UHGV virus genome: UHGV-0183032
Origin: a virus
Reading direction: 5' to 3' (one strand)
DNA: 16,673 nucleotides
The translations under genes were made by a program, and so were the position numbers. Below, in pieces: positions 3,390 through 8,401 of this stretch; the first letter of the stretch is position 1; each line of letters begins with the position of its first letter. The notes beneath the pieces were generated by a model. The model saw only the letters and a program-made list of their open reading frames with translations. It made no database searches and had not been told where the DNA came from.

Positions 3390-4904
3390 TTAAAATCCGC
3401 GCAGACGCTTAGGTAACATAAGGCCCATCGCCTGTGGTTGGCTTAATTCGGTGATACCCCATACCATAGCGTCCATACGGTCAGGGGATTTTTTAGCGGT
3501 GGCTGGCACGTATTCCATCATTTGATTTTCCAGCGTGTACAACTCACCAGTGTGGGCCACCCTTCCCTGTGCATATAGCGCAGATATTGGTTCGGCACGG
3601 GCGAATTTACCTTTGCTTGCGTGTACCTTAACAATGCGGCCTTTGAATCCGGCATTGCGTAGTGTGGCCTCTGCCATATCACCACCCTGGTTGGTTTCGA
3701 TAACCATCGCGTCAGCTTCATGGATGTTGTAGGCGTTCATTGCTGCTTGCGCCCAGTCGTTAGGTGACATGCGGCCTGAGTAGTCACCGTCTACAGAATA
3801 CTGAGCGTACTTGCCGCCACCATAAGCGGAACATGCCACGATCCCGGTTTCGTCCGACTCATCAGATGATGTTGTTGCCGGGTCGATGGCTATCACCGTG
3901 CGAATTTTCTCCTGCGTTATCTGCATCCTGTGCGCGGCGGTTATCATCGCTTCAGTCCACAATGCGCCCTCTTGATCGAACTTGCGCGGACACTGCATAT
4001 ATTGAGCTTCGAATGTTCGGCGATGTGATTTAAGAGTTGATTCATCTTTATCACTATGCTTATGCAACCATAGCCAGCCATCCGGCAGGTTGTGAGGAAC
4101 AGGAATAGCGAATTTGTTTTCCGGGTACAGATCCCAATAGTCAAGACTGTTGTCGATCTTCACTGGCAGGCAAAGGTGATGCCATTTCTCACCACTACCG
4201 CCACGTAACAGGTAGCCGGATAAATCATCGTAGTGGATACGCTGCATGATGACGATCACTGGCGTTGTTTGCACAGCCAGGCGCGAAGAAAGCGTGTCGT
4301 TGTAATTGGTATTAACCTGCTTTCGCACCACATCAGAATAAGCGTCAGCTGGTTTCAGGGGGTCATCAATAATCATTGCGCCGTTAAACCCAGGTTCCAT
4401 GTACCCGGCGCGGAACCCTGTCACCTGTCCAAGCGATGACGTCGCATACACGCCGCCACCCTGAGTGGTCCACCACAGGTTTTTCGCGTTCGAATCGTTG
4501 CGCATTTGCATAGGCCACAATTCCTGATATTGCGGCATCGTGATTATGTTTCTTGTCTCTGAGGAATTAAGCAAGGCGAGTCCGTGTGAATACGATACAT
4601 GCAGGAATCTGGTGCGGGGTTCTATTGCGAGGCAGCGGGCCATCATGTGAATTGTGGCAATCATTGTTTTGCCATAGCCCGGTGGGATGTTGATTATCAA
4701 CCTGGTGATTTCACCATTAATAACTCGTTGTAGCGTATCGGCAATTATTCTGTGATGACGCCCAACCAAAAAGTCCTTGCCAACCTGTTGCTTATAAAAG
4801 TAGGAACTAAAAAACAAAGGTGCTGATATGTCTTTGGGAGCACAACCTTTAACACACAACCCCCTTAGAACCTCTCTGTCAATCTTTGTCGTCGCAGTCT
4901 CCAT
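3390..4904 (-). CDS. terL: Terminase large subunit (ATPase plus nuclease)
   Basis: 504 aa. N-terminal P-loop-like PPGYGKT with downstream MIIDDPLKP (Walker B-like); C-terminal Asp-rich RNase H-like nuclease region (IAIDPATT...VIETNQGGD). Sits after the small subunit and before the portal. Confidence 0.9.
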   Translation of the reverse strand: METATTKIDREVLRGLCVKGCAPKDISAPLFFSSYFYKQQVGKDFLVGRHHRIIADTLQRVINGEITRLIINIPPGYGKTMIATIHMMARCLAIEPRTRFLHVSYSHGLALLNSSETRNIITMPQYQELWPMQMRNDSNAKNLWWTTQGGGVYATSSLGQVTGFRAGYMEPGFNGAMIIDDPLKPADAYSDVVRKQVNTNYNDTLSSRLAVQTTPVIVIMQRIHYDDLSGYLLRGGSGEKWHHLCLPVKIDNSLDYWDLYPENKFAIPVPHNLPDGWLWLHKHSDKDESTLKSHRRTFEAQYMQCPRKFDQEGALWTEAMITAAHRMQITQEKIRTVIAIDPATTSSDESDETGIVACSAYGGGKYAQYSVDGDYSGRMSPNDWAQAAMNAYNIHEADAMVIETNQGGDMAEATLRNAGFKGRIVKVHASKGKFARAEPISALYAQGRVAHTGELYTLENQMMEYVPATAKKSPDRMDAMVWGITELSQPQAMGLMLPKRLRGF

Positions 4905-5394
4905 GAGTATTGTACTCCTTATTCAGGTTATCGATTATCTCAAGGACAGTAGTCTGATTTACTTCTACCTGGACGGGTGCTTCTTCCTTGTTACCGACGA
5001 TCTCCTGTGTGACGCGTTCGCCGTATTTGCGCGGTTGTAGCTTAGCCAATAACCATTTACGCGTTTCAATCATTAATTGGTGGCGGCGTAGTTGGTCTTT
5101 ATCAACGTTCTTAGCATCATCAGCTATATCGAGGATCTCATCAGCTAATACCTCGAAGCCGATTTCCTTCGCGCGCATGTACATGTCCGAGAATTCCGGC
5201 ACGTCTCTAAACCATTTCAGGATTGTTGAACGGGTAGGCATACCAGGCATCTTCGAAATTTTGTTAACGCTCTGACCGTCCGCCACCAGTTCACAGATTT
5301 CTAACGCCTTTTCTTCGGTATAACCATGCGGACGGCCCACCCTTTTTGCGGCTGGCTTTTTGTCGTCAGCTTTTGCCTTTTTAGTGCGGGCCAT
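4879..5394 (-). CDS. terS: Terminase small subunit (DNA-binding, packaging recognition)
   Basis: 171 aa with a basic N-terminus (KKAKADDKKPAAKRVGRP) followed by an HTH-like segment. Its 3' end overlaps the terL start by 26 nt. GAGAGGTG RBS before ATG 5394. Confidence 0.75.
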   Translation of the reverse strand: MARTKKAKADDKKPAAKRVGRPHGYTEEKALEICELVADGQSVNKISKMPGMPTRSTILKWFRDVPEFSDMYMRAKEIGFEVLADEILDIADDAKNVDKDQLRRHQLMIETRKWLLAKLQPRKYGERVTQEIVGNKEEAPVQVEVNQTTVLEIIDNLNKEYNTHGDCDDKD

Positions 5395-5404
5395 AATTCA
5401 CCTC

Positions 5405-5488
5405 TCAATATTTATTGATGATATATACGCAAGCAACAAAACTTGCACAGTATGTTAATACTTCCAACCAATCGAATAATTCTTTCAT
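5405..5488 (-). CDS. Micro-ORF 9 of array: 27-aa single-helix hydrophobic peptide (MKELFDWLEVLTYCASFVACVYIINKY)
   Basis: ATG 5488-5486 with AAAGGT 6 nt upstream, TGA at 5407-5405, 10 nt before terS. Found by hand; below the 60-aa track threshold. Confidence 0.5.
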   Translation of the reverse strand: MKELFDWLEVLTYCASFVACVYIINKY

Positions 5489-5497
5489 TGTTTACCT

Positions 5498-5566
5498 TTA
5501 CGCGAAGAAAACAATAACAGTTAACAGCGTGCATATAGCCATGATTAAGAAATCACCATCAGACAT
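5498..5566 (-). CDS. Micro-ORF 8 of array: 22-aa hydrophobic peptide (MSDGDFLIMAICTLLTVIVFFA)
   Basis: ATG 5566-5564 overlaps the stop of micro-ORF 7 (ATGTCTGA); GGGGTG 9 nt upstream. Alternative internal ATG at 5542. Confidence 0.45.
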   Translation of the reverse strand: MSDGDFLIMAICTLLTVIVFFA

Positions 5567-5633
5567 TGATAATCACCCCAATAATAACTAATGCAACGGT
5601 ACACACGATCAACATAATATCAATAGCGTTCAT
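5559..5633 (-). CDS. Micro-ORF 7 of array: 24-aa hydrophobic peptide (MNAIDIMLIVCTVALVIIGVIINV)
   Basis: ATG 5633-5631 with GGTGA 5 nt upstream; TGA at 5561-5559. Confidence 0.5.
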   Translation of the reverse strand: MNAIDIMLIVCTVALVIIGVIINV

Positions 5634-5641
5634 GCTTTCAC

Positions 5642-5710
5642 CTATTGAGCAAGCGCGGTCATAGTGAGAACAATCGCAACGATCAGGAAAAAGAAATCAA
5701 GCCATTTCAT
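5642..5710 (-). CDS. Micro-ORF 6 of array: 22-aa hydrophobic peptide (MKWLDFFFLIVAIVLTMTALAQ)
   Basis: ATG 5710-5708 overlaps the stop of micro-ORF 5 (ATGA); GGGAG 8 nt upstream. Confidence 0.5.
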   Translation of the reverse strand: MKWLDFFFLIVAIVLTMTALAQ

Positions 5711-5787
5711 TTTTTAAACTCCCGATAAACATCTACGGCAATAACTGTAATAACAGCCACCAGCAATAGCATTTCGTATGCGTTCAT
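5707..5787 (-). CDS. Micro-ORF 5 of array: 26-aa hydrophobic peptide (MNAYEMLLLVAVITVIAVDVYREFKK)
   Basis: ATG 5787-5785 with GAAGG 9 nt upstream; TGA at 5709-5707. Confidence 0.5.
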   Translation of the reverse strand: MNAYEMLLLVAVITVIAVDVYREFKK

Positions 5788-5798
5788 TGTGGATACCT

Positions 5799-5873
5799 TC
5801 AGCTTTCAATGAATATCATGATCGCCAGCCATACAGCGACGCAGGCAGAAAGGATAATTAGCGGGTCAATCAT
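5799..5873 (-). CDS. Micro-ORF 4 of array: 24-aa hydrophobic peptide (MIDPLIILSACVAVWLAIMIFIES)
   Basis: ATG 5873-5871 with GGGGTGA 5 nt upstream; TGA at 5801-5799. Confidence 0.5.
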   Translation of the reverse strand: MIDPLIILSACVAVWLAIMIFIES

Positions 5874-5878
5874 ATTTT

Positions 5879-5989
5879 TCACCCCACCAAATACTTGATA
5901 TATACGTTTATCAGCGCAACTATAATAGAACCAGCAAGAAACACAGAAACGCCGATTAATCCGGCAATGATGTAAGCGTCCATAATCAT
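5879..5989 (-). CDS. Micro-ORF 3 of array: 34-36-aa hydrophobic peptide ((MI)MDAYIIAGLIGVSVFLAGSIIVALINVYIKYLVG)
   Basis: ATG at 5989 overlaps the stop of micro-ORF 2 (TAATG); the in-frame ATG at 5983 has GGAAG 8 nt upstream and gives an MDAY N-terminus like micro-ORF 2. Confidence 0.5.
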   Translation of the reverse strand: MIMDAYIIAGLIGVSVFLAGSIIVALINVYIKYLVG

Positions 5990-6051
5990 TACTTCCACAA
6001 CAAAAACAATATTACAGCCGCCGCCATTCCGATAAATAAATAAGCGTCCAT
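5989..6051 (-). CDS. Micro-ORF 2 of array: 20-aa hydrophobic peptide (MDAYLFIGMAAAVILFLLWK)
   Basis: ATG 6051-6049 lies 2 nt after the stop of micro-ORF 1; TAA at 5991-5989. Shares the MDAY..G motif with micro-ORF 3. Confidence 0.45.
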   Translation of the reverse strand: MDAYLFIGMAAAVILFLLWK

Positions 6052-6053
6052 AA

Positions 6054-6143
6054 TCAGTCTCGCATAGACATAACTACCAGAAACAGGCAAAGGATGAATC
6101 CAGCCGCCATCCCGCCGACGAAAGTTAGTATTGACGCAATCAT
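6054..6143 (-). CDS. Micro-ORF 1 of array: 29-aa hydrophobic peptide (MIASILTFVGGMAAGFILCLFLVVMSMRD)
   Basis: ATG 6143-6141 sits 2 nt after the TGA of the HExxH gene (TGAttATG) with GAGG 8 nt upstream; codons checked by hand. Confidence 0.5.
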   Translation of the reverse strand: MIASILTFVGGMAAGFILCLFLVVMSMRD

Positions 6144-6145
6144 AA

Positions 6146-6688
6146 TCAGCCTCGTTTAAAACTCATAACACGCGGTACAAGCGCTTCTTTTGCTTTCGGC
6201 TTACGTTTACCTTTCTTCGCTGGCTTTTCTTCTTCCTTCGGCTGTTCTGCCTGTTCCAGCGCCTGATCGACGACTTCTGCCGCCTGCATTGCTGCAACCT
6301 GTGCTTCGTTTGATTCTGCTAGGATAGGGAAAAACGCATCGAAGATACGGCCTACCATGTAAGCGTAAGTCTCATTCGCCGGATGGGTAGGATCCGTGGT
6401 AGCCACGACGCCTACATCACTTAAAACGTGGAATGTAGTGTGGGCGCATTCATGGACCAGCGTTCCCAACTCATTGTTGAATACTGCGATCACGTAGAAG
6501 TTACCACCATTCTCGCCAGTGCAAGTAAGCGTTAATCCTCCAGCCAACTCGAAATCAGGTTCAATCGGAATTCCTGCCTTTTCGCAAAATTCATAGAACA
6601 TCTCGCGGGTCGGGCAAAAGAAAACGGTTGTATGCTCAAAGAGTGGGATCTTAAATTGAGGCAATTTAATGCCTTTAGCCTTAGCCAT
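6146..6688 (-). CDS. Hypothetical protein with HExxH zinc-metallopeptidase-like motif and Lys-rich basic C-terminal tail
   Basis: 180 aa; motif VHECAHTTFH; C-terminal KKGKRKPKAK tail; AGGAG 9 nt before ATG 6688. Function inferred from the motif only. Confidence 0.7.
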   Translation of the reverse strand: MAKAKGIKLPQFKIPLFEHTTVFFCPTREMFYEFCEKAGIPIEPDFELAGGLTLTCTGENGGNFYVIAVFNNELGTLVHECAHTTFHVLSDVGVVATTDPTHPANETYAYMVGRIFDAFFPILAESNEAQVAAMQAAEVVDQALEQAEQPKEEEKPAKKGKRKPKAKEALVPRVMSFKRG

Positions 6689-6967
6689 CAGAATAATCTC
6701 CTATTCTGAAAAATATAACCCCCGCAAAACTCGACACCGCAGGGAGTGAAAACAGTTATAAAACACTGAAAACGGCGCTTCATCAGTACCGTTTCCAGAA
6801 TTTTATAAAATTGGTGAATGGCGCTTTCTTCTACCCAGGTAGCGCCTGACCTGTTAATGGGACTGTTGATCCGGTATTACGTGTTTTTGACTATTCCGCC
6901 GTCGCTCGCGGGAAGGATTGGCCCGGTTATGGCTGGCTGGCGGAAACGGCGACACGTCCGCGCGCTG

Positions 6968-7438
6968 TTATTCTTTGCGTATGCACTGCGTTTTGATGTA
7001 GTCCTGTAATCCGGTGATCTTCGCGTCTTTCTCTTTTAGTTGTTCTCTGAGGGATAGATAATTTGATTGAGCACTGGCAGTAAGTCTACAGGTGGCTCCA
7101 TTAATGCTGCTGGCGGTTCCGGTGGCGTCGTGCACGTACACTGGCTCGGCGTTGACGTGCAACCTGATAGCACCGCTATCAATGCCAGCGCGAAGATCGG
7201 CAATGTCAGATCTGATAGCTTTAATCTCATCGTGATACCTCTTATCAAGTTTTGACAGTTCGGCGTTTCGCTCCTTCATCTGCTGGATAGTGTTACTTGC
7301 TGTTTTTAGTGCGCCTTTCGTCACCGTGACTTCTTCCTGTAACCTTGCCGCCTCACCCTGGTAATAACACGTTACGGCGGTAAGCCCGGCAATAATGCAA
7401 ACAACAACGGCGATGATTAACGTCTTCACCTTGTCCAT
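6968..7438 (-). CDS. Rz: Rz-like i-spanin (inner-membrane spanin subunit)
   Basis: 156 aa with an N-terminal TM helix ([16 protein letters not shown]) and coiled-coil periplasmic domain. Follows the endolysin and contains an embedded +1-frame lipoprotein ORF. Confidence 0.85.
7036..7230 (-). CDS. Rz1: Rz1-like o-spanin (outer-membrane lipoprotein), embedded in Rz
   Basis: 64 aa from ATG 7230 ([24 protein letters not shown]...); lipobox LSGC; Pro-rich mature part. Wholly inside Rz in another frame. The track start at 7248 is TTG. Confidence 0.8.
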   Translation of the reverse strand: MRLKLSDLTLPIFALALIAVLSGCTSTPSQCTCTTPPEPPAALMEPPVDLLPVLNQIIYPSENN

Positions 7439-7917
7439 GTTTCACCCCATTCGCAAACGGCATATTCAACATCACGGCGGTTAATTAACCCTTGCCACTG
7501 CTTACCACCAGCATATATCCAGCGTTTAAGCTGTGCGCACGCCTCCGATTTCTTGCCGTCATTGAGTAGCTTCAATAATGTTGATGTTTTGAAGTTGGTA
7601 GCGCCTACGTTATAGGCGAATGAATAAAGCGCCGCGCGGGTAAAATCTGATATTTCGACTTTAATATATGGGTCAATCGCTTTTGCGGTTTTGTGGAGAT
7701 CTTTGTTTAACAAAGCATCGCATTCTGATTGCGTGTAAGTTTTACCCAGCATAATGTCTTTTCCGGTGTGACCATAACATACAGTCCATACACCGATAGC
7801 ATCACGATACGGATCGTACTCCACGCCTTCTAATGGTTTAACCATCACAGCCGCAATAGCGATCGCCCCGCCAGCCGCCGCAGCAATAATCTTGTTTTTC
7901 AGCGATTGGCTAATCAT
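7426..7917 (-). CDS. SAR endolysin (T4/P21-type lysozyme, GH24) with N-terminal signal-anchor-release domain
   Basis: 163 aa. Gly/Ala-rich weakly hydrophobic N-terminus ([18 protein letters not shown]), then [23 protein letters not shown], which is closely similar to the phage 21 R21 lysozyme as recalled. Confidence 0.9.
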
Positions 7918-8118
7918 TTACTTATTCCCCATTCGCGCGTCGTGTTCCTCTTGCGCTCGCTTGTTCTCCTGTGATTTGAAGTAATAGTTAACGGCAAATG
8001 TGCCTACGGTTGATAAGATACCCACAAAGACGGCAATGTCATTGATGGTTATCGCGCCGAAAAAAGCAGTTACGGCCCCAGTCACATACGCGCACGCCTC
8101 CCGTATTTTGTCGAACAT
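7918..8118 (-). CDS. Holin, two-TM class II (pinholin-like)
   Basis: 66 aa with two hydrophobic helices and a charged C-terminus (KSQENKRAQEEHDARMGNK). Immediately upstream of the SAR endolysin; GGAGG 7 nt before ATG 8118. Confidence 0.8.
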   Translation of the reverse strand: MFDKIREACAYVTGAVTAFFGAITINDIAVFVGILSTVGTFAVNYYFKSQENKRAQEEHDARMGNK

Positions 8119-8130
8119 AGATTTTCCTCC

Positions 8131-8160
8131 AACAAAGCAAAAACCCGGCGCGGGGCCGGG
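8131..8160 (-). terminator. Intrinsic terminator on the minus strand, directly upstream of the holin RBS (tR'-like)
   Basis: Minus strand reads CCCGGC-cccgc-GCCGGG followed by TTTTTGCTTTGTT: 6-bp GC stem, 5-nt loop, U-tract. About 13 nt separate it from the holin RBS. Confidence 0.6.
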
Positions 8161-8188
8161 TAATTACAATTTCGCATTGTTAGGAAAT

Positions 8189-8217
8189 ATTTTAATCTGT
8201 TTGTTTACGCCCTACAA
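8189..8217 (-). promoter_or_regulatory. Candidate sigma70-type promoter (late promoter P_R'-like) upstream of the terminator
   Basis: Minus strand TTGTAG, 17-nt spacer, TAAAAT; would give a roughly 50-nt leader ending at the hairpin. The -35 element is weak. Confidence 0.3.
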
Positions 8218-8224
8218 ATACGGC

Positions 8225-8401
8225 TTACGGCTTTCTATATATCAGGCCGTTATCAAGCAACATTTGCATATGCCGCCGATCCATGTCGCTTGATTCCCAA
8301 TGTGGATCGTCATCAGGTCTTATCATCACCTTATTACCTTTAAGTAAATAGACGATGTTAAATACCTTATGCAAATAGATACCATCTTCGATCTCGTTCA
8401 T
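8225..8401 (-). CDS. Hypothetical small protein, 58 aa (MNEIEDGIYLHKV...)
   Basis: Found by hand, codons verified. ATG 8401 overlaps the stop of the upstream ORF (ATGA). N-terminus IEDGIY resembles its upstream neighbour. Confidence 0.5.
   Translation of the reverse strand: MNEIEDGIYLHKVFNIVYLLKGNKVMIRPDDDPHWESSDMDRRHMQMLLDNGLIYRKP

Follow-up and report, generated by a model that had tools for sequence, protein, structure and literature searches.

AcrZ and KdpF are small single-transmembrane microproteins of the enterobacterial inner membrane, from a class of 16-50 amino acids (aa) that was found with ribosome-binding-site (RBS) models and comparative genomics, and the enterobacterial membrane microproteins that have been characterised bind larger membrane proteins. 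Very small transmembrane (TM) peptides are also made by phages. The single-gene lysis (Sgl) peptides of the ssRNA phages, such as LysM, a 37-aa inhibitor of MurJ, inhibit a specific host inner-membrane enzyme, but they differ from the locus described here in that they occur one per genome, act as the sole lysis effector and are often encoded out of frame in other genes. Here we analysed a stretch of 16,673 nucleotides from the virus genome UHGV-0183032 (the window). It is a portion of an Escherichia coli prophage, a temperate phage of the mEpimmI (mEp021) group. Its minus strand carries, from position 6143 to 5405, nine tiled micro-genes of 20-34 aa, located between the gene for a 180-aa protein (p180) and terS, the small terminase gene. 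An earlier note had described nine consecutive open reading frames (ORFs) in this interval from the letters of the window; all nine are present and all start with ATG.

The array peptides have the properties of the size class of small inner-membrane microproteins, namely no more than 50 aa, an RBS and start codon of their own and one predicted TM helix. With the enterobacterial microproteins they share a similar size, their own RBS, a single helix, purifying selection and the fact of having been missed by annotation (PMC11188072). However, those proteins are solitary or encoded beside the gene of their partner, whereas here nine genes (3 to 13 in relatives) are tiled, exchangeable and located in a lytic operon. 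PfsE, a 30-residue inner-membrane peptide of the Pseudomonas Pf filamentous phages that binds PilC (PMC8764522), is also a phage peptide of about 30 aa predicted to be in the inner membrane, and it needs specific residues and a host partner. In contrast to the array, which would be lytic and is predicted to be N-out, PfsE is a single gene expressed by the prophage for superinfection exclusion, its tagging suggests N-in, and no sequence similarity connects it with the array.

The type I toxins (Ibs, Ldr, Hok, TisB and ShoB; PMC2887945) are, like the array peptides, hydrophobic single helices (18-50 aa), often in tandem. They have their own promoter, a long 5' untranslated region and an antisense small RNA (sRNA), whereas at the array no antisense signal and no sRNA family was found, the ORFs lie too close together for separate transcription units, and the sequences are unrelated (Zor was also unmatched). 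Finally, the antiholins, the Mu releasin and the holin-like proteins of actinobacteriophages are small phage membrane proteins of one or two TM domains (TMDs), cotranscribed with lysis genes, and they contact the holin or the signal-arrest-release (SAR) domain through their TMDs. These accessory lysis proteins are nevertheless of about 60-130 aa, one to few per phage, adjacent to the endolysin or holin and equipped with soluble domains, whereas the arrays consist of 9-13 minimal helices of 20-34 aa, parted from the lysis genes by another gene. We found no equivalent tiled array in the literature on tandem small phage membrane proteins, and the survey of small ORFs in Enterobacteriaceae mentions neither prophages nor a tandem arrangement (PMC11188072). 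We class the locus among the small phage and bacterial membrane microproteins, as one with a new architecture.

A tiled array of single-helix micro-genes

The nine ORFs form an unbroken ladder of reading frames, in which the stop codon of p180 precedes the first ATG by 2 nt and the last stop codon precedes the ATG of terS by 10 nt. The stop-to-start spacings from ORF1 to ORF9 are 2, 5, 5, 11, -4, 8, -8 and 9 nt. The two negative values are genuine stop-start overlaps, ATGA (stop of micro-gene 5, start of micro-gene 6) and ATGTCTGA, as the earlier note had reported; a third overlap that it listed, TAATG, fits only an upstream ATG of ORF3, and the start conserved in relatives is the MDAY start at 5983. 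The presence of a Shine-Dalgarno (SD) element before each ORF was borne out by anti-SD duplex energies of -3.0 to -9.8 kcal/mol, four of them weak (ORF2, -3.0; ORF3, -4.1; ORF5 and ORF9, -4.0 kcal/mol). The proposal of one hydrophobic helix per product also held, since the Wimley-White octanol energy of the best 19-residue window is favourable for 9/9 peptides (-1.4 to -12.7 kcal/mol), with peptide 5 as the weakest and marginal prediction and peptide 9 as a moderate one.

This array exceeds what chance would give. We used a detector that required an ATG, an SD energy of -3 kcal/mol or lower, 18-60 codons and a 15-residue Kyte-Doolittle window of at least 2.0, and it returned a chain of nine ORFs on the sense strand and none on the antisense strand. 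In 500 dinucleotide-preserving shuffles, by comparison, the mean was 0.42 qualifying ORFs and the maximum 3. In the remainder of the window just three isolated ORFs qualified, each within a larger ORF, and the longest chains in the complete genomes of lambda and T7 were 1 and 2, respectively.

The locus was compared with that of 7 phage records, 4 E. coli prophage records, 44 IMG/VR contigs anchored on terS and 2 further contigs. In the relatives the interval from p180 to terS measures between about 320 and 1,160 bp (1,306 bp with an HNH endonuclease gene in mEp013), and micro-ORFs of this kind fill it in 48/48 distinct array versions. About 18 peptide families recur, with between 3 (Ap-B-K) and 13 cassettes per array, and their order is fixed in every array: (A | Ap | Ap2 | N)-B-D2-M-C-D-L-E-F-G2-G-H-I-G2'-J-K; only presence or absence differs. 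Families K, F, C and G are intact in 48, 47, 45 and 44 of the 48 arrays, respectively. The junctions between cassettes are overwhelmingly of -8, -4 or +1 to +18 nt, and length within a family is nearly invariant (C, 24 aa in 23/23 DNA versions; F, 26 aa in 30/31; H, 24 aa in 22/22). Scans of genome contigs anchored on terS and on p180 gave no relatives, and those of viral contigs returned only contigs of the mEpimmI type.

As the earlier note had anticipated for genuine genes, frames and lengths are kept. A census of cassettes at the DNA level, made without presupposing an open frame, counted 433 copies, 420 of them intact (97%). Five copies are truly disrupted, by two start-codon mutations (one common to three related arrays) and one frameshift; the other eight non-intact copies either differ in length at the C-terminus or are fused to the next ORF. 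The Nei-Gojobori ratio of nonsynonymous to synonymous substitution (dN/dS), calculated pairwise and not on a tree, is 0.10-0.35 in frame in 14/14 testable families, against 0.45-3.5 in the two shifted frames, and the variable sites at codon positions 1, 2 and 3 number 140, 94 and 237. We are all but certain that this is an array of autonomous micro-genes for single-pass inner-membrane peptides, each with its own SD and ATG, in an antitermination-dependent lytic block.

A first alternative is that the interval holds no genes, the ORFs being chance products of an AT-rich spacer, a structured RNA or a pac DNA element. The GC content, which falls to 0.36-0.41 across the array, the location beside terS and the tendency of AT-rich sequence to give hydrophobic ORFs (PMC11188072) are in its favour. 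Note that low GC and a T-rich sense strand, which is also seen here, are what hydrophobic codons give. Against this alternative are the shuffle test, the frame-specific dN/dS, the bias to third positions and the 97% of intact copies; in addition, the absence of cassettes that is seen in relatives would be intolerable for a pac site or an essential RNA. A structured RNA or DNA element had been named beforehand as the outcome that would overturn the coding claim, and the tests went the other way: RNA folding of the array stretch is unremarkable (z = -0.19), a tRNA search of it found none, and in the Rfam scan no family reached threshold (the sole match, the S15 leader, scored 22 against 39.5 bits) and no sRNA family appeared at E<=1. 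On these comparative data the non-coding explanation is effectively refuted, and we give it next to no credence.

As the earlier note had proposed, the array escapes standard gene calling. PGAP annotates 0/9 of the ORFs and leaves 751 bp empty in an identical prophage, and the limit of ab initio calling in RefSeq is 40 aa (PMC11188072). In four phage records, 4/19 of the coding sequences (CDSs) drawn over the array match a cassette, the others being off-frame or over-extended TTG or GTG calls. An exact-sequence look-up in 15 billion proteins found only peptides 1, 3 and 5 deposited, each as 'hypothetical'; peptide 3 occurs as a 'hypothetical protein' in a few E. coli records. The nine peptides and the 47-aa family J gave nothing at or near threshold in Pfam, PHROGs, NCBIfam or PADLOC, and a protein-database search with family J returned just 24 close clusters, none of them named. 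A 'DUF1043' label carried by one third-party annotation (TPA) record for peptide 1 was not reproduced. Similarly, the possibility of an array of precursors of bacteriocins or of ribosomally synthesised and post-translationally modified peptides (RiPPs) was rejected, with no leader motif or family match and with terminase and lysis genes as neighbours. The indexed literature held no paper with the peptide sequences in print. The region receives no discussion in the mEpimmI genome paper, where the words 'transmembrane' and 'small ORF' do not occur, and the virion mass spectrometry in that paper would miss peptides of this kind (PMC11893012).

Table 1. Micro-genes of the array and neighbouring features, with positions in the window
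Feature	Position	Strand	Details
Micro-gene 1 (family A)	6143-6054	-	29 aa MIASILTFVGGMAAGFILCLFLVVMSMRD; invariant GxxxG; ATG 2 nt past p180 stop
Micro-gene 2 (family Ap2)	6051-5989	-	20 aa MDAYLFIGMAAAVILFLLWK; 68-bp presence/absence cassette; present in 5 arrays
Micro-gene 3 (family B)	5983-5879	-	34 aa MDAYIIAGLIGVSVFLAGSIIVALINVYIKYLVG; 36 aa from alternative ATG at 5989; dN/dS 0.18
Micro-gene 4 (family C)	5873-5799	-	24 aa MIDPLIILSACVAVWLAIMIFIES; 45/45 copies intact; dN/dS 0.31
Micro-gene 5 (family F)	5787-5707	-	26 aa MNAYEMLLLVAVITVIAVDVYREFKK; basic C-terminal tail; 47/47 copies intact; dN/dS 0.25
Micro-gene 6 (family G)	5710-5642	-	22 aa MKWLDFFFLIVAIVLTMTALAQ; 44/44 copies intact; dN/dS 0.10
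Micro-gene 7 (family H)	5633-5559	-	24 aa MNAIDIMLIVCTVALVIIGVIINV; 32/32 copies intact; dN/dS 0.33; overlaps micro-gene 8 by 8 nt
Micro-gene 8 (family I)	5566-5498	-	22 aa MSDGDFLIMAICTLLTVIVFFA; 29/32 copies intact, start codon lost in 3 related arrays; dN/dS 0.26
Micro-gene 9 (family K)	5488-5405	-	27 aa MKELFDWLEVLTYCASFVACVYIINKY; always the last hydrophobic cassette; 48/48 copies intact; dN/dS 0.13
terS, Sf6-type small terminase	5394-4879	-	PF20901, 1e-37; directly downstream of the array
p180, 180-aa HExxH gene	6688-6146	-	phrog_1365, 2.4e-31; no Pfam match
Rz spanin	7438-6968	-	Pfam match
SAR-type endolysin (lysozyme)	7917-7426	-	Pfam match; Gly/Ala-rich SAR-like N-terminal domain
HP1-family holin	8118-7918	-	PF16080, 1.9e-15; 66 aa, two TMDs, weak P21 S match
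Strong GC-rich intrinsic terminator	8161-8143	-	ACCCGGCCCCGCGCCGGGTTTTTGC; immediately upstream of the holin RBS

Side-chain selection, predicted topology and cassette exchange

Selection acts on the peptides beyond their hydrophobicity. Overall, replacement of one hydrophobic residue by another occurs at 0.40 of the synonymous rate, and other replacements at 0.23. Across families this ratio for hydrophobic swaps (pC/pS) is 0.14-0.64; it is 0.14-0.27 in families G, D2, K, I, E and B, with G at 0.14. In addition, families A, Ap and E contain an invariant GxxxG, and small-xxx-small motifs are found in B and C. Because hydrophobic swaps lag so far behind silent changes, their suppression points to sequence-specific helix packing as the likely function, over a generic anchor, a spacer or bulk damage to the membrane.

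These data also bear on the possibility that the peptides are incidental, the array being a ladder that loads or couples ribosomes (protecting the message from Rho, or bringing ribosomes to terS) or tethers the late mRNA to the membrane. The tiling is indeed unbroken from the p180 stop to the terS start, with junctions of -8 to +18 nt, and cassette K, whose stop lies so close to terS in the window, is universal. However, a ladder needs only an open frame or generic hydrophobicity, yet side chains and exact lengths are kept. Moreover, the number of cassettes varies four-fold while the flanking genes are retained, and cassette A is kept alone in a different genomic context (see below). We regard this explanation as very improbable.

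The distribution of charges predicts how the helices are oriented. Summed over distinct peptides, 45 positive and 266 negative charges precede the longest uncharged run, and 200 positive and 81 negative charges follow it. By the positive-inside rule, the peptides would be N-out/C-in, their acidic N-terminus facing the periplasm and their C-terminus the cytoplasm. The signal is clearest in the basic-tailed families B, D, F, J and L, and all the peptides lack the positively charged n-region that marks a signal peptide.

Next, we consider how the arrays change. In alignments over the presence/absence polymorphisms, whole cassettes are excised or inserted exactly at translation-start regions. The 68-bp unit of ORF2, for instance, is flanked by a direct repeat, TGATTATGGAYG, that ORF2 and ORF3 have in common, and cassette D is bounded by the similar starts of D and F, CATGAATATTTACGA and AATGAACGCATACGA. 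The earlier note had taken the shared M-[DN]-A-[YI] N-termini as a sign of repeated duplication. This proposal stands in part, in that ORF2/ORF3 and D/F share start-region repeats at the sites of the indels; on the other hand, most families have diverged so far that a shared ancestry cannot be proved, and the only clear DNA-level repeat within the window is that of ORF2 and ORF3 (29 nt, 79%). The shared heads serve as recombination sites as well. Arrays evolve by gaining and losing whole cassettes, through recombination where the start regions are similar, and single cassettes pass from one phage to another that is unrelated.

One such movement is seen for family A. A full-length homolog of peptide 1, with 76-79% aa identity to the window copy, is present in about 90 records of rV5-like (Vequintavirus-type) virulent myoviruses of about 130-139 kb. 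The copy is unannotated in most of them; in phage JeffSchatz it is the solitary 29-aa CDS bas55_0158, among unrelated small genes. The JeffSchatz copy and the family-A variant of an mEpimmI contig (L037 among our loci) are identical at 87/90 nt. Since this similarity begins at the SD, GCGAGGCTGAT, and ends at the stop codon, the unit of exchange is a single micro-gene together with its RBS, and the transfer of family A is independent evidence of a self-sufficient gene. It also suggests that the target of peptide 1 is not specific to the mEpimmI phages. When all families were searched by tblastn in 50,697 phage records, family A was the only one found outside the mEpimmI group.

A second solitary small hydrophobic protein, of 35 aa (MFIEMLSGVLLLVAILGGAVLMYNYLEKGDSNGKK), is encoded in the JeffSchatz cluster that holds the family-A homolog (L055, 162-269); single-helix microproteins may be a wider feature of the rV5-like group.

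Several further observations concern the repertoire. A hydrophobic 31-aa peptide, MGILLVCVFIALVAMEVLLPIWAATWMMQDD, occupies the first position in mEp010 (L002, 2335-2430) and mEp554 (L006, 2337-2432), and because it falls outside the family list, the cassette repertoire exceeds the approximately 18 families. Adjacent cassettes are sometimes fused into one two-helix ORF, as with B+D2, of 55 aa (L058, 1829-1996), and by read-through E reaches 55 aa (L018) and B 60 aa (L048); fused cassettes are natural experiments on how well the peptides tolerate linkage. In L009, L021 and L022 an extra ORF of 47 aa with a strong SD lies between K and terS, and its product is acidic and non-hydrophobic (MNDEELKIADEIRK...KLRFGKDD); L016 has a 48-aa GTG-start variant of it. 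In one prophage PGAP places a 47-aa hypothetical protein between K and terS. The similarity of the acidic ORF to Klebsiella phage ORFs is no more than weak.

Expression context and the lysis genes

Prophages in four E. coli chromosome records (GN04592, MS 21-1, CB7286 and a second record that agrees in length and coordinates) are 100% identical to the interval 4879-6688, and 34 of the 5,426 complete genomes of E. coli have related copies. Among deposited phages just seven match the locus at the DNA level, all of them mEp phages or MagusPhagus. The minus strand reads holin, endolysin, Rz, a 279-bp spacer, p180, the array, terS, terL, portal and a MuF-like protein (Table 1). The placement that the earlier note gave the array, between lysis cassette and terminase, is accurate on the terS side; on the other side the array does not abut the lysis genes, as p180 and the spacer separate Rz from ORF1.

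The mEpimmI phages encode an N-like antiterminator, Gp17, with three nut sites (PMC11893012). No Q-like antiterminator was recognisable among the small ORFs upstream (eight ORFs, 8.5-10.9 kb, without significant Pfam matches), and late expression presumably depends on the Gp17 system. Within 4800-8400, promoter-like and terminator-like matches were not above shuffle expectation (promoter-like sites, 4 against 6.8 expected), and none of the former was convincing on the antisense strand of the array. Because the transcript must read through the terminator upstream of the holin, and because p180, the array and terS are joined by junctions of 2 and 10 nt, we infer that the array is transcribed with the lysis and packaging genes in lytic growth and is silent in the lysogen. 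A role in exclusion by the lysogen is disfavoured by this position in an antitermination-dependent lytic block; in these phages, exclusion has been ascribed to Lpp lipoproteins encoded elsewhere in the genome (PMC11893012).

The same context bears on whether the peptides are non-specific membrane-active agents, similar to type I toxins or mini-holins, that self-associate late in infection and depolarise or permeabilise the membrane without a protein partner. In size and hydrophobicity they do resemble type I toxins, with Wimley-White energies of -5 to -13 for most of them; for IbsC we computed -12.2, using what we take to be its reference sequence. Self-association could be driven by the GxxxG motifs, and small hydrophobic toxins do occur in tandem copies in enterobacterial genomes (PMC2887945). 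However, eighteen distinct conserved sequences with suppressed swaps exceed the needs of bulk damage, a canonical holin is already present in the genome, and no peptide matched a toxin family. A type I toxin arrangement in particular is disfavoured, since no antisense promoter rose above chance, no sRNA family was found and the ORFs are tiled in an operon. Altogether, we judge non-specific membrane damage improbable.

A stronger competitor is that the peptides modulate the timing of lysis, by packing in the inner membrane on the pinholin, the i-spanin or the endolysin's SAR domain, in the manner of an antiholin or releasin, or by shifting the proton-motive force; they would thereby set the moment of pinholin triggering and of SAR-endolysin release. 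The array belongs to the same transcription block as an HP1-family holin and a SAR-like endolysin and lies about 0.8 kb downstream of them. The founding member of the HP1 holin family is a pinholin that works with a SAR endolysin (PMC7312051), and the features of holin and endolysin together suggest that a pinholin/SAR-endolysin system operates here. In Mu, release of the SAR endolysin can need the single-TMD releasin gp25, a dependence that comes from Lys6/Lys7 of the endolysin (PMC9239132); the endolysin encoded here has K7 and K9 in the short cytoplasmic head of its SAR-like N-terminus, and by analogy it possibly shows a releasin-like dependence as does Mu gp22. In addition, clusters of small TMD 'holin-like' proteins lie beside the lysis genes of actinobacteriophages (PMC9671378, PMC13056207).

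Other results do not fit well with this explanation. Both sides could be compared at 45 loci. In 43 of these the holin is 91-100% identical, yet 36 array compositions, of 3-13 cassettes, occur among the loci; where identity drops to 54%, for the holin at two loci and for the endolysin at one, the cassettes come from the repertoire used by the others. Composition of the array did not co-vary with the holin or endolysin alleles in these loci, a weak test with a holin so near to invariant. Because of this, and because cassette 1 is common to rV5-like phages, whose lysis genes are unrelated, a strict partnership with the phage's own holin seems disfavoured. To our knowledge, peptides of 20-34 aa are also shorter than any characterised holin or antiholin. 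Unlike a holin/antiholin pair, array and holin are not adjacent, with Rz, the 279-bp spacer and p180 intervening; nor do the peptides resemble the DUF2730 releasins, as they have no soluble domain and no similarity to holin, antiholin or releasin families in Pfam and PHROG. Finally, in P22-like phages the slot beside p180 is used for something else (see below). Modulation of lysis timing is a credible explanation, although on balance we doubt it.

The neighbour p180 consists of an HExxH...E domain (residues 1 to about 125) followed by a Lys-rich tail, with residues G51, H79, E80, H83 and E106 invariant. Its AF2 model has a pLDDT of 94, and the BFVD matches include 'SprT-like' and 'Metalloprotease'; against the aKG-HExxH peptide-hydroxylase model it scored E=0.26 and 11 bits, with a cut-off of 40. 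p180 is a homolog of Orf129 of the P22-like phages. In ST64T and epsilon34 the homolog occupies the same slot and is followed by an ORF annotated as head decoration protein, with no array, and because of this the p180/array slot behaves as a general accessory-gene site, outside the lysis cassette proper. We regard p180 as a conserved upstream neighbour of the array.

Other small and mobile genes were noted in this block. A 31-aa ORF (MKRRFQCFITVFTPCGVEFCGGYIFQNRRLF; 6688-6783, minus strand) has a TGA stop that overlaps the ATG of p180 (TGATG), and MagusPhagus has an annotated 31-aa CDS at the matching position. HNH homing-endonuclease genes are found in the p180/array gap of mEp013 (L005) and between endolysin and Rz in a metagenomic relative (L059). 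Since they sit at different points of one block, they mark the lysis-array-terminase region as a hotspot for mobile insertions.

Candidate targets in the inner membrane

The analysis establishes that the ORFs are coding and under selection, how the peptides are predicted to sit in the membrane, that the array evolves by modules and in which operon it lies; what the peptides do has to be read from these results. We propose that the array is a variable toolbox of membrane-protein modulators. The peptides would be translated in succession from a polycistronic lytic mRNA, by coupling or re-initiation at the junctions of -8 to +18 nt, and each would bind a different inner-membrane partner by sequence-specific helix-helix packing, the partner being likelier a host protein than a phage one. 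A transporter, a factor for envelope biogenesis or DNA entry, or a membrane-embedded defence effector are candidate partners. The nearest precedents in function are the enterobacterial microproteins that bind larger membrane proteins and PfsE, with PilC as its host partner (PMC8764522). We favour, tentatively and with somewhat less than even confidence, the reading that the peptides are independent modulators of host inner-membrane proteins in the lytic cycle, because the cassettes are many, distinct, dispensable and conserved, their side chains are under selection, one of them has been exported, and no co-variation with lysis proteins was seen.

Several points weigh against this proposal. Selection at the level of side chains would fit equally well with homo-oligomerisation into a pore or channel, or with packing on a conserved phage protein. 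A role in lysis would account equally well for the location, downstream of a pinholin/SAR-endolysin cassette, and with a nearly invariant holin the missing co-variation is weak evidence against a holin partner. Only cassette A was seen outside the mEpimmI group, so that for the other eight a host target is extrapolated. Furthermore, the comparison genomes all belong to this one phage group, and their copies are not phylogenetically independent. Finally, the topology comes from the positive-inside rule alone and is ambiguous in families C, G, G2, H and I, which have no C-terminal basic residues.

A bolder version of the host-modulator proposal is that every helix of about 25 aa has an inner-membrane protein of the host to itself, which it inhibits or for which it serves as decoy; the targets would be membrane-embedded anti-phage effectors, DNA-entry factors or envelope factors of importance in the lytic cycle. 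Recombination at start regions would then shuffle the repertoire within the group and occasionally export a unit of about 105 bp, SD plus ORF, to unrelated phages. We hold this version to be unlikely as it stands; if it were true, the island would represent a new architectural class of counter-defence or host-takeover locus in phages, invisible to current annotation. What probability the explanations considered here leave over belongs to one not yet imagined.

The mEpimmI family has been reported as prevalent in the human gut (PMC11893012), and its phages carry nine single-helix genes here, and up to 13 in relatives, in less than 1.2 kb. These genes are in effect absent from the protein databases. 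As a compact natural library, the locus lends itself to the study of phage microprotein function, in a genetically tractable host (E. coli K-12 supports the mEp phages) and with natural presence/absence variants. If the peptides tune lysis, they would add a layer to the control of pinholin and SAR endolysin; if they target host membrane or defence proteins, they would represent a new form of membrane manipulation by phages and a source of minimal TM-helix inhibitors.

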